Positions 26,935 to 62,552 of a DNA stretch of 64,000 nt are shown here, piece after piece. The number at the start of each line of letters is the position of its first letter. The first letter of the stretch is position 1. A program made the translations under genes and the position numbers. The stretch is from a virus (taxonomy: Duplodnaviria > Caudoviricetes): the IMG/VR virus record IMGVR_UViG_3300021963_000022. One strand, 5' to 3'. The notes under the pieces are model-generated. The model did not search any database, was not told where the DNA came from, and worked only from the letters and a program-made list of their open reading frames with translations.

Positions 26935-29679
26935 ATGAAAATATCAAAATTATTAGAAAATCCTACCCCGTCAAGCACTAGTGACCTTAATGGAGGCGGC
27001 TTCGGTGGTCAAGCTCCTCGTTTTGGTCGTGATCCTGAAATATTAGAAGATGAGCAAATTGATGAAACAACCGCTGGCTCAACAGGAACAGGATCTGTGG
27101 GTGGAGGAGTTGCTACAGATTTAGGTATGCAACGTAGAAGTAAAGGTAGCATATTTCAAGGTGTAAGAACAAGTAAGAAGTTTGTTAATTCTCCAGTAAC
27201 AGAAGATCCATTAAAAGATAAATCATTGGATGCACTAAGTCAAGCAAAAAATGTTATTGCTCAAAAGCGTATGGCTGATTTAGAGCAATGGGAAAAAGAA
27301 TTCAAACAAAGCATGGTTAATAAACTTAAACAAAAGCCATCATTTGAACCAGTTCCAGTAAGTCAGCCCGGTGAAAAGCATTCTGTATTAAAGTCTAGAA
27401 TGTCTAATTTAGATATGGCTATTCAAAAACATCAACAAGTTGAAGCATTGGCACAAAAACTTGATAAGGTAGGAAGACTATCACCCGCAATACAATCTGC
27501 AATAGATACACGTATGCATATTAAACTTGGTCCCAAAGATAACTATCAAACATTGAATAGAAAACTTGACAGTATAATAGAGATGTTAAATAAAAATCTA
27601 AACACTTACAAAATTGCACGTAAGAAACCAAAAAAAATGCGTGAAGATGGCATAACAGCAGGTATTAATAAGTATTATGACGATAGAGCTAGTGGAGCAC
27701 TTGATCCTAGAACTGGACAAAAACAACCATACTTGCAACAATGGGCATTAAAAGTTAACGGTAAAGTAGATGGTAGTAACATCTTTAGAAGTGAACAGGC
27801 TGCAATGCTAGCAAGGTCTGCTCTTTTAAGAAAAAATCCTAATGTGCAGATTGGACTTGTAACTAGAGGTGGATTAGCCGAAGCTGATATGAATCGTAGA
27901 GATTTTATAAAAGGTGTGGGTGCGGTAGCCGCAACTGGTGCTACCGATCAAGCACAACCAACTCAAAGACAAGATTTAGGAAATAGTTTTTCTACAGCAG
28001 TAGTAGAGATTGGTGGAGTACCATTTAATGTTGTACTAGATACAGTAAGTAAATCTATCTACATGTTGAATCAAAAAAGTGATGGCACTCCTCTTGTTAA
28101 TAAGCCAGGATCATTTATCGTAATAAGGAATGGTAAATTAGAACCTAGAATGGACCTTGCTCCAAATATTATGAACGCATTACAAAAAGCAGGCTTACTA
28201 GATAAACAACAAGGTGTAAGAGAAGGTGTTAGAGATTTAGGATATGACGCACAATCTTTAATAATGAAACTACGTAGAGATGTTGAAGAAAGAAGACTAC
28301 AACCAACTAGAGAAGCAGTGTTGTCTGCGGCAAGAGAACTAGCCGGTGATATGGACTTTGCTCCTGAACTATTAGTTCGTCAAGTGTTAGGTCAAAGTGT
28401 GACGGAAGAATTCAACGGCGAATACGATGACGAAGCAGGTATGGCTGACAACAATCTTGAAACATTGCGCCGTGCTGTAGATGGTATTGATAATGTTATT
28501 GACTCAGGTGACAACTTACCTGAATGGTGCCAAGAAAAGATTGCTGTAGCTAAATCAATGTTGGTTACCGTTTGGGATTACATGAAATCTGAAGAAGAAC
28601 GTAATGGTGGTGAAAAAATTGATGAAGGTTGGGTAAAAAATGCTATAGCAAGTGCAACATTAGCTGGTGCCGCTCTTGGTGCAGGCAATGCACAAGCCGC
28701 TGACTTAGGTGGATATAATACTCAATATCTACAGGGTGTAGTGTCTGGACAAGTAGCACGACCAATGATAAGTGTAGATGCCGCTAGACAAGAATTACAA
28801 GCACGTGCTAATGGTAAGACACAAACACAAGCTCCTGCTAATACAAATGTTGCACCTCAACAGGGAACTAATCAAACTCCAAATTTAAGTGCTTACGAAA
28901 CTCGATATCTACAAGGTGTAGTGTTGGGTAAAGTACCGAGACCAACGGTAAGTGTAGATGCCGCTAGACAAGAATTACAGTTACGTGCTAGTAGTACACA
29001 ATCAGATGTTAATACTATTTCATCTCGTTGGGGTTCTAATCAACCCAACAATGCAAACGTTATTACTTCACGTGGAGTACAACGTGAAGGTATGAATGAT
29101 AATCCTAAAGTAGATTTAAGTCCTAACTATCCTAACTATTCAAAATTAGTTGGTGAATTCATTGGAATGAAAAATAATAGAGCAAGATTTTTAATTATAG
29201 ATGCTGAACTTAAACCAGGTGTACGTGAGACTGAAAAAATCTTTAGGGCTAGGACAACTAACACTCCAATCAGTATTGAAATAAGTAAAGTACGTAATCG
29301 TAACGTAGTAGAGGGTGAGTTAAGCGAAGAAAGTTTGTTAGCAAAAGAACTAGCTAATCAATTTAAATTGTTTAATAAAGCAAATGACCGTGACTTAAGT
29401 GGTAAGCCAGAAGATAGAGAAATAATAGCAAAAGAAGCGGCTCATGTACCTGGAATGGTAGATCGTATTGAAAATCAAATTACAACAAAGATAGCTAAAG
29501 AGCACCCTGAAATTATACAACAATATGGTAAACAGATTGTACAAGATGCTATTTCAAGCATTGCAGTATATCATAGACACATGAGAGAAGTAACTCCAGC
29601 TAATATAGATGATATGGTTAATGAAATCATACAACAGTTGGATAGACATTTACATATGAGAGAAGATGAAAATAGTTGA
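26935..29679 (+). CDS. Large mosaic protein (914 aa), candidate processed internal-head polyprotein
   Basis: No single recognisable fold; about 12 hydrophobic-x-E|(G/A/D/E/N/T) junctions; internal duplication. Confidence 0.7.
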   Translation: MKISKLLENPTPSSTSDLNGGGFGGQAPRFGRDPEILEDEQIDETTAGSTGTGSVGGGVATDLGMQRRSKGSIFQGVRTSKKFVNSPVTEDPLKDKSLDALSQAKNVIAQKRMADLEQWEKEFKQSMVNKLKQKPSFEPVPVSQPGEKHSVLKSRMSNLDMAIQKHQQVEALAQKLDKVGRLSPAIQSAIDTRMHIKLGPKDNYQTLNRKLDSIIEMLNKNLNTYKIARKKPKKMREDGITAGINKYYDDRASGALDPRTGQKQPYLQQWALKVNGKVDGSNIFRSEQAAMLARSALLRKNPNVQIGLVTRGGLAEADMNRRDFIKGVGAVAATGATDQAQPTQRQDLGNSFSTAVVEIGGVPFNVVLDTVSKSIYMLNQKSDGTPLVNKPGSFIVIRNGKLEPRMDLAPNIMNALQKAGLLDKQQGVREGVRDLGYDAQSLIMKLRRDVEERRLQPTREAVLSAARELAGDMDFAPELLVRQVLGQSVTEEFNGEYDDEAGMADNNLETLRRAVDGIDNVIDSGDNLPEWCQEKIAVAKSMLVTVWDYMKSEEERNGGEKIDEGWVKNAIASATLAGAALGAGNAQAADLGGYNTQYLQGVVSGQVARPMISVDAARQELQARANGKTQTQAPANTNVAPQQGTNQTPNLSAYETRYLQGVVLGKVPRPTVSVDAARQELQLRASSTQSDVNTISSRWGSNQPNNANVITSRGVQREGMNDNPKVDLSPNYPNYSKLVGEFIGMKNNRARFLIIDAELKPGVRETEKIFRARTTNTPISIEISKVRNRNVVEGELSEESLLAKELANQFKLFNKANDRDLSGKPEDREIIAKEAAHVPGMVDRIENQITTKIAKEHPEIIQQYGKQIVQDAISSIAVYHRHMREVTPANIDDMVNEIIQQLDRHLHMREDENS
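28769..28979 (+). repeat. 31-bp exact direct repeat, 180 bp apart, within a duplicated peptide
   Basis: TAAGTGTAGATGCCGCTAGACAAGAATTACA at 28769-28799 and 28949-28979 (SVDAARQELQ). Confidence 0.9.
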
Positions 29680-29792: not shown

Positions 29793-30236
29793 ATGTTAGC
29801 AGATTCATTAAAAATTGCACTGGCTAGTAGCTATGTGTTTCAAATCAAAGTTCAAAACTTTCACTGGAATGTTGAAGGCCCAGACTTTCCACAATATCAC
29901 GAATTTTTAGATAACTTATATAGCGAAATCAACGATAATGCTATTGACCAAACAGCGGAACTGATTCGTCAATTGGATCAGTATGCACCGGGTAGTATCA
30001 CACGCTTTGTTGAGTTAAGTGTTATTCAGGATCAAGTAAAAATTCCACGTGCTGAATTGATGATTGCTGAGTTATATGAAGATAGTGCAAAATTGTTACA
30101 GTTATGGAAAGAAATGTTCCCTATAGCTGAACAAGAAAACGAACAAGGTATAGCAGACTTCATTGCTAGTCGTATTGATGCACACGGAAAACACAATTGG
30201 ATGCTACGTAGCATATTAAAGAAACAACGTGCTTAA
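29793..30236 (+). CDS. dps: Dps/ferritin-like protein
   Basis: NFHWNVEGPDFPQYHEFL...DQTAELIRQL...HGKHNWMLRS. Confidence 0.88.
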   Translation: MLADSLKIALASSYVFQIKVQNFHWNVEGPDFPQYHEFLDNLYSEINDNAIDQTAELIRQLDQYAPGSITRFVELSVIQDQVKIPRAELMIAELYEDSAKLLQLWKEMFPIAEQENEQGIADFIASRIDAHGKHNWMLRSILKKQRA

Positions 30237-32320: not shown

Positions 32321-33094
32321 ATGAGAGCATCAGAACTAGAAGAATCCGCCGCCGATGAGTTGAAACGTAAACTCCCAAGTCTTAACAAGACTGATTACTC
32401 AACCATCGACCACTTAATGAAACGTATCAGTAAGCGTTTTAACATTAGTGGTAAAAAACTACATGACTTGTTCGTTAGCAAGTACGGTGAAACACCTGAT
32501 CATTGGATTAAAAAATACAAAGATAAGTTAGATGAGGCACAACTTGCAGGAAATCCTATATATGTAATATATGTTGACGGTAAACCAGCAACAAAATATG
32601 TTGATTCTAATGAAGCAAAACAAGACCTTCAATTACTAAAAAACAAGTTTCCTAATAAAACTTTTGTAATAAAACAACAAAATGATACGACTCCAGGTGG
32701 TACTAATCTTATAGGTGAAGGTGTTGAATCGTCTGACGATGAACAAAAGATTAAAGATTTTATTGAATGGTCTTATAAAAAAGTAAACTTACAAAAGCCT
32801 TATCCCAAGTTTACATTCAGTAGAAATACAGAAGAAGCACAAGAAGGTCATCACACCGGTCGTCATACGCACGACGGTGAAAACAGTCAAATATGGGTGT
32901 ATATTGAGAATCGAAATCTAGTAGATATATTCAGAACTATATTCCATGAGATTGTACATGAAAGACAAATGCAACTTAATATGATTGGTCCTGATGATAG
33001 TTATCCAGGAAGTCCCGTTGAAGCAATGGCTGACATGATGGCTGGCAAATATATCAAAATCTACGGTAAAGAGCATCCTGAGATATTCCAATGA
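32321..33094 (+). CDS. Mosaic protein with C-terminal HExxH (zincin-like) module
   Basis: Leader MRASELEE|S; junctions KLDE|A and LIGE|G; TIFHEIVHERQ. Confidence 0.65.
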   Translation: MRASELEESAADELKRKLPSLNKTDYSTIDHLMKRISKRFNISGKKLHDLFVSKYGETPDHWIKKYKDKLDEAQLAGNPIYVIYVDGKPATKYVDSNEAKQDLQLLKNKFPNKTFVIKQQNDTTPGGTNLIGEGVESSDDEQKIKDFIEWSYKKVNLQKPYPKFTFSRNTEEAQEGHHTGRHTHDGENSQIWVYIENRNLVDIFRTIFHEIVHERQMQLNMIGPDDSYPGSPVEAMADMMAGKYIKIYGKEHPEIFQ

Positions 33095-61839: not shown

Positions 61840-62100
61840 ATGAATGATGATGAAAAAGAAATTAAGTTTAATGTTGATGGTTACAGCCGAGAGCATATCC
61901 GAATGCTTGATACCATGTGGAGTAAAAAAACTACGGAAGAATATCAGGAATGGTTAAATGGTTTAACCACAAAAGAATTAGAAATGGCACTACAACTTAG
62001 CACAATACTATTGATGGAAATTATAGAACGTGATAAAATGAGTGACATTTCAGTAGCTAAGAACTACTTGAAGAAGTTTACATTAAAAGGAACACAATGA
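61840..62100 (+). CDS. Hypothetical protein
   Basis: 86 aa, AGGA SD. Confidence 0.55.
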   Translation: MNDDEKEIKFNVDGYSREHIRMLDTMWSKKTTEEYQEWLNGLTTKELEMALQLSTILLMEIIERDKMSDISVAKNYLKKFTLKGTQ

Positions 62101-62552
62101 ACTTAAAAGCTAAACCTATTATTAAAAATCAATACTGGGTAGTCACTGATGGTGAGAAAAAAGTAGGTAATGTTATTGCTGAAGGGAGTGGCTATGAGTT
62201 GAAGCTAGGGAAGAATTCACAACACTTTACAACTACTAAAGCTATTGAAAAGACTGCTAGTATTGAATTTGAGAACGTAAAGAAAGTAGTTAATCCTGAA
62301 CTACCTTTTTCAGTATTCCCCACTACGTCAAACAGGGTATATAACAGTGTATTAGATGTAAAACGTAAACTACATTTATTTACTGAAACACCTAAAAGCA
62401 AATGTTATCATGTTGCAGGTTGGTTTGCACTTAAACAAGATATTGAGTATGAAACAGTTTTTTGCCCAAAATATATATTTGTACAGCGTTATCCTTACAT
62501 CGGTCCGTTTAAAACTGAATCAGAAGCAAAAAGTAGCATAAATAGTATATGA
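62097..62552 (+). CDS. Conserved phage hypothetical protein
   Basis: 151 aa; SKCYHVAGWF...FCPK...RY.Y.GPFKT. Confidence 0.65.
   Translation: MNLKAKPIIKNQYWVVTDGEKKVGNVIAEGSGYELKLGKNSQHFTTTKAIEKTASIEFENVKKVVNPELPFSVFPTTSNRVYNSVLDVKRKLHLFTETPKSKCYHVAGWFALKQDIEYETVFCPKYIFVQRYPYIGPFKTESEAKSSINSI

Follow-up and report, generated by a model that had tools for sequence, protein, structure and literature searches.

The 64,000-nucleotide (nt) stretch of viral DNA analysed here (IMG/VR record IMGVR_UViG_3300021963_000022; the window in what follows) is part of a phage-like contig of ~348 kb with ~36% GC. Its genes include a T4-type DNA polymerase, a clamp loader, a ClpB-like ATPase, tail-fibre-like genes and a LamG-type virion protein, and by DNA polymerase the nearest cultured phages are the jumbo phages RaK2, K64-1, XaC1, Atu_ph07 and Phosso (42-49% identity). 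Our subject is P0001, a modular protein encoded in the window (Table 1). Two peptides that resemble export signals, one of the twin-arginine translocation (Tat) type and one of the general secretion (Sec) type, lie deep inside its chain, each directly behind a motif of the kind cut by the T4 head protease gp21, which cleaves after Glu in L/I-x-E (PMC9026906). This layout, a putative signal directly behind a putative cutting motif and at the start of a module, is conserved in dozens of relatives and suggests that cleavage inside the capsid would uncover export addresses on proteins injected together with the DNA. P0001 itself had no match among 50,697 cultured phage records searched with blastn and tblastn.

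A word-index search with P0001 returned 130 relatives, and pairwise mapping onto them resolves the protein into a chain of short modules (aa, amino acids, 1-90, 91-228, 247-311, 313-422, 425-491, 487-564, 585-682 and 785-911) that reappear in the relatives in shuffled order and in other combinations. The borders mapped by homology coincide with hydrophobic-x-Glu motifs, namely LAE316, VRE430, VTE491, IDE564 and VVE793, which fit the L/I-x-E motif of T4 gp21. One module of ~67 aa, encoded at window positions 28207-28407 (aa 425-491, GVRDLGYDAQ...VLGQSVTEE), is found at 75-93% identity in more than 100 otherwise differing mosaic proteins, some of which carry DUF6321 or GP88 domains. A Dps/ferritin-like gene lies directly downstream of the mosaic gene (29793-30236); in the related IMG/VR contig G001, introduced below, such a gene (61999-62433) likewise lies directly downstream of a mosaic gene, which has a different set of modules.

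Table 1. P0001 and the features discussed in the text, in window coordinates.
Feature	Position	Strand	Basis or description
P0001, 914-aa modular protein	26935..29679	+	Translation of the open reading frame
N-terminal leader MKISKLLE of P0001, ending L-L-E	26935..26958	+	Weak capsid-targeting-like tag
Junction L-A-E (aa 314-316)	27874..27882	+	T4 gp21-type L/I-x-E, predicted cut after E316 (motif of PMC9026906)
Tat-like signal ADMNRRDFIKGVGAVAATGATDQA (aa 317-340)	27883..27954	+	RRDFIK n-region, 11-residue h-region, c-region T-G-A or D-Q-A
Cargo domain A (aa 341-430, QDLGNSF... to GVRE430)	27955..28224	+	~80 aa, six strands and a helix
Junction I-D-E (aa 562-564)	28618..28626	+	Sequence motif, predicted cut after E564
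Sec-like signal GWVKN-AIASATLAGAALGAG-NAQA (aa 565-588)	28627..28698	+	n-region, h-region and AxA composition
YLQ cargo behind the Sec-like signal	28699..29004	+	Two tandem helical-hairpin units, Y594... and Y654...

The first of the two peptides, GLAEADMNRRDFIKGVGAVAATGA, spans aa 313-336 (nt 27871-27942) and reads GLAE/ADMNRRDFIKGVGAVAATGA, where the slash, here and below, marks a boundary. The initial annotation, made from the sequence alone, had noticed an RRxFxK motif a few residues behind a linker, and two curated Tat models confirm it behind LAE316: the hit of the Pfam family TAT_signal (PF10518) covers aa 318-337 and scores 22.7 bits (E 8.5e-5), a value equal to the gathering score of the family, and TIGR01409 matches aa 320-337 with 17.7 bits at a cut-off of 16.7. 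The consensus S/T-R-R-x-F-L-K is represented by N-R-R-D-F-I-K at aa 320-326. The hydrophobic h-region that follows, GVGAVAATGAT, has 11 uncharged residues, where at least 12 are given for Tat signals (PMC7317946); it is among the shortest of the family, and the caution of the initial annotation about its shortness was well placed. Two sites are candidates for the c-region, T-G-A (aa 334-336), which leaves a very short h-region, and D-Q-A (aa 338-340), which has Asp at -3. As encoded, the twin arginines are residues 321-322 of 914, and they would come to lie near an N-terminus only after the predicted cut behind E316. In the AlphaFold2 (AF2) model this stretch is disordered (predicted local distance difference test, pLDDT, <50) and lies outside the confidently predicted domain.

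The second peptide, KIDEGWVKNAIASATLAGAALGAGNAQAADL, covers aa 561-591 (nt 28615-28707) and reads KIDE/GWVKNAIASATLAGAALGAGNAQA/ADL. The basic-hydrophobic-AxA anatomy originally ascribed to it is indeed present behind IDE564. An n-region GWVKN with Lys568 is followed by an h-region of 15 uncharged residues (aa 570-584, mean Kyte-Doolittle value 1.47) and by a c-region N-A-Q-A at aa 585-588, which holds the A-x-A site as A586-Q-A588. The peptide begins at residue 565 of 914, so that an N-terminal position would again arise only through a cut, in this case after E564, and its stretch is likewise disordered in the AF2 model (pLDDT <50). Both complete signal peptides of P0001 measure 24 aa.

How regularly such peptides are coupled to junctions was counted over 189 related metagenome proteins, with a junction defined as [VILM]xE; additional Tat-like copies were drawn from IMG/VR contigs and from a profile search that used only the cargo as query. 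In a count blind to the junction, all 34 distinct Tat-like motifs, which fall in 32 distinct upstream contexts, have the Glu of a [VILM]xE 2-6 residues before the RR, against a base rate of 0.097 in the same proteins. Scanning for the bare RRxF motif turned up 29 sites in 26 relatives; each of them is internal (positions 217-917) and follows x[VIL]xE. The commonest form is EADMNRRGFLK, many copies have a full h-region and AQA, and homologous Tat copies reach 31-38 bits with both Tat models. The Sec-like pattern consists of [VILM]xE/GWK.., 13-19 Ala, Gly or Leu residues and (N/H)AQA/ADLSxYNTQYLQ or QA/RVTPG. It recurs in ~20 long and 25 shorter relatives, each time behind a junction, which holds for all of the shorter ones as well. 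When non-Tat hydrophobic segments of any kind were counted blind to the junction, 39 of 62 stood behind one, and 5 of the 23 rows with no junction were classed by eye as the Sec-like unit too. Of segments rich in Ala, Gly and Leu that end in AxA, about 43 of 44 follow a [VILM]xE junction; multi-transmembrane (multi-TM) and Gly-zipper segments of the same proteins do not. At each of the 66 junctions that precede a signal, V, L, I or M occupies position P3, though this count itself required the motif. The Tat-like and Sec-like motifs are not chance matches. Both recur at the start of modules right behind [VILM]xE, and it is this coupling that lends the idea of a polyprotein the independent support that the initial annotation had seen in the signals.

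Some of these relatives deserve separate mention. P0043 and P0015 each carry two Tat-like signals in one chain, to which P0043 adds a Sec-like signal and a module with a DnaJ J-domain. P0067, P0117 and P0139 share a hydrophobic module of three helices that is rich in Ala and Gly (WLAVGGAGAGLAASGLLAPLVASMGG...); it has neither a junction before it nor an AxA and may be a true membrane module. P0143 and P0164 keep the c-region and the start of the cargo (NAQAADLS and NARVTPG) with a polar stretch in place of the h-region; these rare copies may be decayed or replaced signals.

In composition, the two classes of peptides differ as real Tat and Sec signals do, for which differences of this kind have been described (PMC7317946). 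If the Glu is taken as the residue before the new N-terminus, both classes show canonical signal geometry: the Sec n-regions comprise 3-6 residues and the Tat RR lies 2-4 residues in. The h-regions of the Tat class in relatives are 9-19 residues long (median 15) and contain 29% Gly, and Leu accounts for 8% of them compared to 15% in the Sec class. The Sec-avoidance feature, a basic residue placed either in the c-region or early in the mature part, is present in 18 of 36 Tat-class versus 7 of 37 Sec-class copies; the Tat c-regions of the relatives are AQA, AMA, ALA or SQA, often with a Lys before. Among the segments behind junctions we found no strongly hydrophobic signal of the signal recognition particle type and no lipobox, the mark of the lipoprotein class. 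The presence of only moderately hydrophobic, post-translational-type signals at these positions fits a protein that arrives already made.

The cargos that follow the signals are of different kinds, including a QDLGNGF domain, FKGTLPAP, PMAGLPN, RVxPGG and ADLS-YLQ, and the Sec-like class is tightly paired with the YLQ cargo. In P0001 the first YLQ unit starts ADLGGYNTQYLQ directly after AQA and is modelled by AF2 as a confident helical hairpin. The tandem unit of ~35 aa at window positions 28714-29004 follows the pattern Y-x-T-x-YLQGVV-x-G-x-V-x-RP-x-x-SVDAARQELQ, and a YLQ unit is also found elsewhere without a signal (GFSKEYLQ...). Cargo A folds confidently in the AF2 model (pLDDT ~90), and this stretch carries no known fold or family match. 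In copies of cargo A found by its own motif, DLGN[GS]F, among the word-index relatives, RRxF[IL]K is kept in every one and is retained down to 33% cargo identity. Where a copy lacks the signal, the junction Glu stands 2-5 residues before the domain, at the position that AxA occupies in signal-bearing copies, as in the pair ALA/RVSPGGPDDRGFG and IVE/RVAPGGPDDRGFG with the starts RVSPGG and RVAPGG. Since the AxA position equals the junction position, both boundaries would give the same mature N-terminus.

Searches for the cargos outside the mosaic proteins had little return. A stand-alone module of Tat signal and cargo A had no match among proteins of 30-501 aa, and in a profile search across 1.84 billion representatives every occurrence of cargo A was in a phage-like mosaic protein and none followed a true N-terminal Tat signal, so that the notion of homologous modules starting stand-alone genes elsewhere is not borne out for this combination. 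Comparison of the cargo folds with the PDB by Foldseek gave only E >0.2 and VIA-align gave Z <=5.2, which is the level of common arrangements, and with regard to function the ESM Atlas offered no usable match and a PDB sequence search none. The role in superinfection exclusion or envelope remodelling that had been suggested for the fragments is a guess, as no fold or family match assigns the cargo a function.

The motifs at the junctions direct attention to the processing of phage heads. In T4, the first 10 residues of the internal protein IPIII load proteins into the head, and fusions with this capsid-targeting sequence (CTS) are delivered into infected cells (PMC9026906). According to the T4 record, IPII and IPIII both start MKTYQEFIAE/A, and genes of the window start in a closely similar manner, with MRAKEFIAE/A, MRASEFIVE/A and MRAREFLIE/Y. 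Genes with CTS-like tags lie at window positions 32321 and 33091 on the plus strand and at the minus-strand starts 53419, 53901 and 56599, and the tags of these window genes are MRASELEE, MRAREFLIE, MRAKEFIAE, MRASEFIVE and MKFTEIITE. P0001 shares a start of the form MKI...[IL]xE with its signal-bearing relatives P0125, P0128 and P0031; other signal-bearing relatives start MRASEFTTE, MRAKEFIIE and MKASEFIIE. Synteny with the window extends over ~60 kb in the IMG/VR contig G001 (331.6 kb, 93% complete), and between the two the DNA polymerases are 57% and the clamp loaders 59% identical. The T4-type head module of G001 contains, in a row, an acidic scaffold-like gene rich in [VIL]xE, a gene for a Peptidase_S77, the family of gp21 (94 bits), a second scaffold-like gene and a gp23-like capsid gene, the product of which has LNE, LLE and LSE in its N-terminal part. 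A Peptidase_S77 (76 bits) is also encoded by G003. From these syntenic relatives we infer a gp21-family protease for this very phage.

Taken together, we propose that cleavage by the head protease exposes the signals and that the fragments, once injected, are exported post-translationally by the host. The biochemical steps are each predicted. What was observed is that the motifs are present, that throughout the family they are coupled to junctions and resemble signals in composition, and that syntenic relatives have a T4-type head module. The short N-terminal leader would bring P0001 into the prohead, and a gp21-family head protease would cut after the Glu of the [VILM]xE junctions. A cut after E316 would yield a fragment starting ADMNRRDFIK... 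with a Tat-type signal, and a cut after E564 one that starts with GWVKN, an Ala/Gly/Leu h-region and AQA, that is, with a moderately hydrophobic Sec-type signal. Like the internal proteins of T4, the fragments would remain inside the capsid and pass with the DNA into the next host cell. There, the post-translational routes of the host (TatBC and SecA/SecYEG) would recognise the newly N-terminal signals, the fragments would be moved to the periplasm or the inner membrane, and signal peptidase would trim them at AxA.

To this route as a whole, including the identification of P0001 as a capsid-packaged polyprotein of an uncultured giant T4-type phage, we assign about an even chance. A broader version is more tentative and, in our view, somewhat short of even: a two-step targeting across cells by swappable cassettes of signal and cargo, by which the host would export ready-made phage proteins to the periplasm or inner membrane within moments of infection, before any phage gene is expressed. 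An immediate action of the exported pieces on the envelope of the injected cell is a reasonable guess. The interpretation of the initial annotation is partly supported: the positional logic, by which cleavage would unmask the signals, holds across the relatives, and the routing to export that would follow is predicted. Its premise that such signals work only near an N-terminus was too strong, since internal Tat signals are in use in membrane proteins with dual Sec-Tat insertion (PMC3471235, PMC5449189).

Several observations weigh against the proposed route. The leader of P0001 resembles the T4 tag MKTYQEFIAE only weakly, and the Tat copy of the protein is the weakest in the family, combining the 11-residue h-region with threshold scores in the hidden Markov models (HMMs) and a best AxA candidate that has Asp at -3. 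The peptides of the Sec class are unusual for Sec signals in that Ala and Gly make up ~70% of their h-regions and a Trp is conserved at P2', and one Sec-like subclass has an Arg right after AQA, which disfavours Sec. The codons GAA GCT GAT ATG AAY CGT AGA are nearly identical across unrelated contigs. In the profile search with the cargo only, cargo A is found without any signal in ~20 of 46 clusters, so export is not required for cargo A everywhere. G001 has the protease, yet no internal signals were seen in G001. Finally, the buried-signal layout was found in no cultured phage, neither by blastn and tblastn nor in a scan of five of the nearest jumbo phages. This six-frame scan with TIGR01409 returned one ordinary N-terminal Tat protein, a small protein of Sinorhizobium phage Phosso (469 kb; L044 1129-1671, minus strand) with the signal MSNIGNISRRNFLRRALAGATIVAAATSPAVA.

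The unusual composition of the h-regions could have a different origin. Ala/Gly-rich N-termini unmasked by the protease might, on ejection, enter the inner membrane of the host directly, without Sec or Tat, and thereby anchor the fragment or help to build a conduit for the DNA, in the manner of cleavage-activated class I viral fusion peptides. Such peptides would account for the high Ala and Gly content with its small-xxx-small spacing, for the conserved Trp at P2' in the Sec-like class and for the subclass with Arg at +1, which is poor for Sec; a cut site would precede them just as strictly, and Gly-zipper or multi-TM modules also occur in related mosaic proteins. However, direct insertion leaves unexplained why RRxF[LI]K is near-invariant and reaches HMM scores of 31-38 bits, why AxA is kept before different cargos and coincides with the junction position, and why the peptides split into Tat and Sec classes by Leu content and c-region charge. 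We consider it unlikely.

The codon word points to another alternative. It lies at window positions 27880-27903 and in L015-L020, with varying codons downstream, and looks like an in-frame recombination word common to these contigs; the near-identity of junction and n-region at the codon level indicates that the unit spreads by recombination as a DNA word and that its copies are not independent. The signals could accordingly be non-functional passengers, either flexible linkers of Ala and Gly or remnants left by the capture of exported genes, carried along with the junction word. The partly eroded appearance of the Tat copy of P0001, the many clusters in which cargo A occurs signal-less, and the loss of the h-region from P0143 with NAQAADLS kept are all in line with this. 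Against it, h-region codons vary synonymously or by conservative replacement around RR, F, [LI] and K, which stay fixed; copies are complete or wholly absent, not decayed; the class-specific signal features are retained; and neither among the 1.84 billion representatives nor among the shorter proteins did an ancestor turn up, in bacteria or phages, in the form of a separate gene that joins an N-terminal Tat signal to cargo A. Passengers of this kind appear rather improbable.

An action of the signals in the producer cell or without head-protease cleavage, through internal starts or cytoplasmic processing that make exported proteins late in infection, or through targeting of the uncut chain, seems very unlikely: most Tat-class copies do have a Met two residues before RR (ADMNRR), and Rieske-type proteins show that a Tat signal can function internally (PMC3471235, PMC5449189), but the known internal Tat signals follow Sec-inserted TM helices and not hundreds of soluble residues, and the constant Glu of [VILM]xE 2-6 residues upstream would be left unexplained. 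An internal translation start as a general mechanism is ruled out, because no start codon stands in frame in the Sec-like class (GGT TGG GTA in P0001), Tat variants with ID, DLS, VD or LS before RR have no Met, and no good Shine-Dalgarno site or late-promoter word lies upstream of the ATG.

If cleavage in the head does unmask export signals, the reach of head-internal phage proteins would extend beyond targets in the cytoplasm, of which restriction enzymes and RNA polymerase are examples. Via the Tat and Sec systems of the host, the envelope of a newly infected cell could be acted on at time zero, be it for the exclusion of rivals, against periplasmic defences or on the cell wall. Bacterial viruses would then have a counterpart to the bipartite transit peptides known from chloroplasts, and the cassettes of junction, signal and cargo would represent a natural toolkit for periplasmic protein delivery by T4-style packaging vectors. 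The T4-type CTS, gp21 processing and the Tat and Sec signals are all known parts. We found no published description of their assembly into a protease-unmasked export address on head-packaged modular cargo in the papers open to our search, and literature searches turned up no internal protein of the T4 family with a Tat or Sec signal.

Among known systems, the internal proteins of T4 offer a close parallel in architecture. Like IPI, IPII, IPIII and Alt, P0001 combines a predicted L/I-x-E cleavage motif with variable cargo, its weakly tag-like leader also ends in hydrophobic-x-Glu, and as in T4 there is an S77 protease together with scaffolds and a gp23-like capsid protein, here in the syntenic relatives. 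Unlike the T4 proteins, which have a single cargo and act in the cytoplasm, P0001 strings together many cargos, two of which begin with export signals. The nearest concept is found in the bipartite transit peptides of thylakoid-lumen proteins, in which a protease removes the first element and exposes a Tat- or Sec-type signal for a second translocation. There, the process takes place in a eukaryotic organelle and serves a single cargo, whereas here the first step would be head packaging and delivery to another cell. Class I viral fusion peptides such as those of influenza HA2 and HIV gp41 are also Ala/Gly-rich and hydrophobic and become N-terminal only after a protease cut; in contrast to the peptides of P0001, they lack both RRxFLK and a signal-peptidase site of the AxA type, and it is from the outside that they act on membranes. 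In giant phages of the phiKZ/SPN3US type, many head-internal proteins are cut after Glu by gp21-like prohead proteases and ejected, but the cleavage motif is S/A-x-E, unlike the junctions of P0001, and export signals behind the cuts are not reported there (PMC9026906, PMC5694885). In the dual Sec-Tat Rieske proteins of actinobacteria the twin-arginine signal is likewise not N-terminal (PMC3471235, PMC5449189). It follows Sec-inserted TM helices and needs no cleavage, whereas that of P0001 follows ~316 soluble residues and a protease-type junction.

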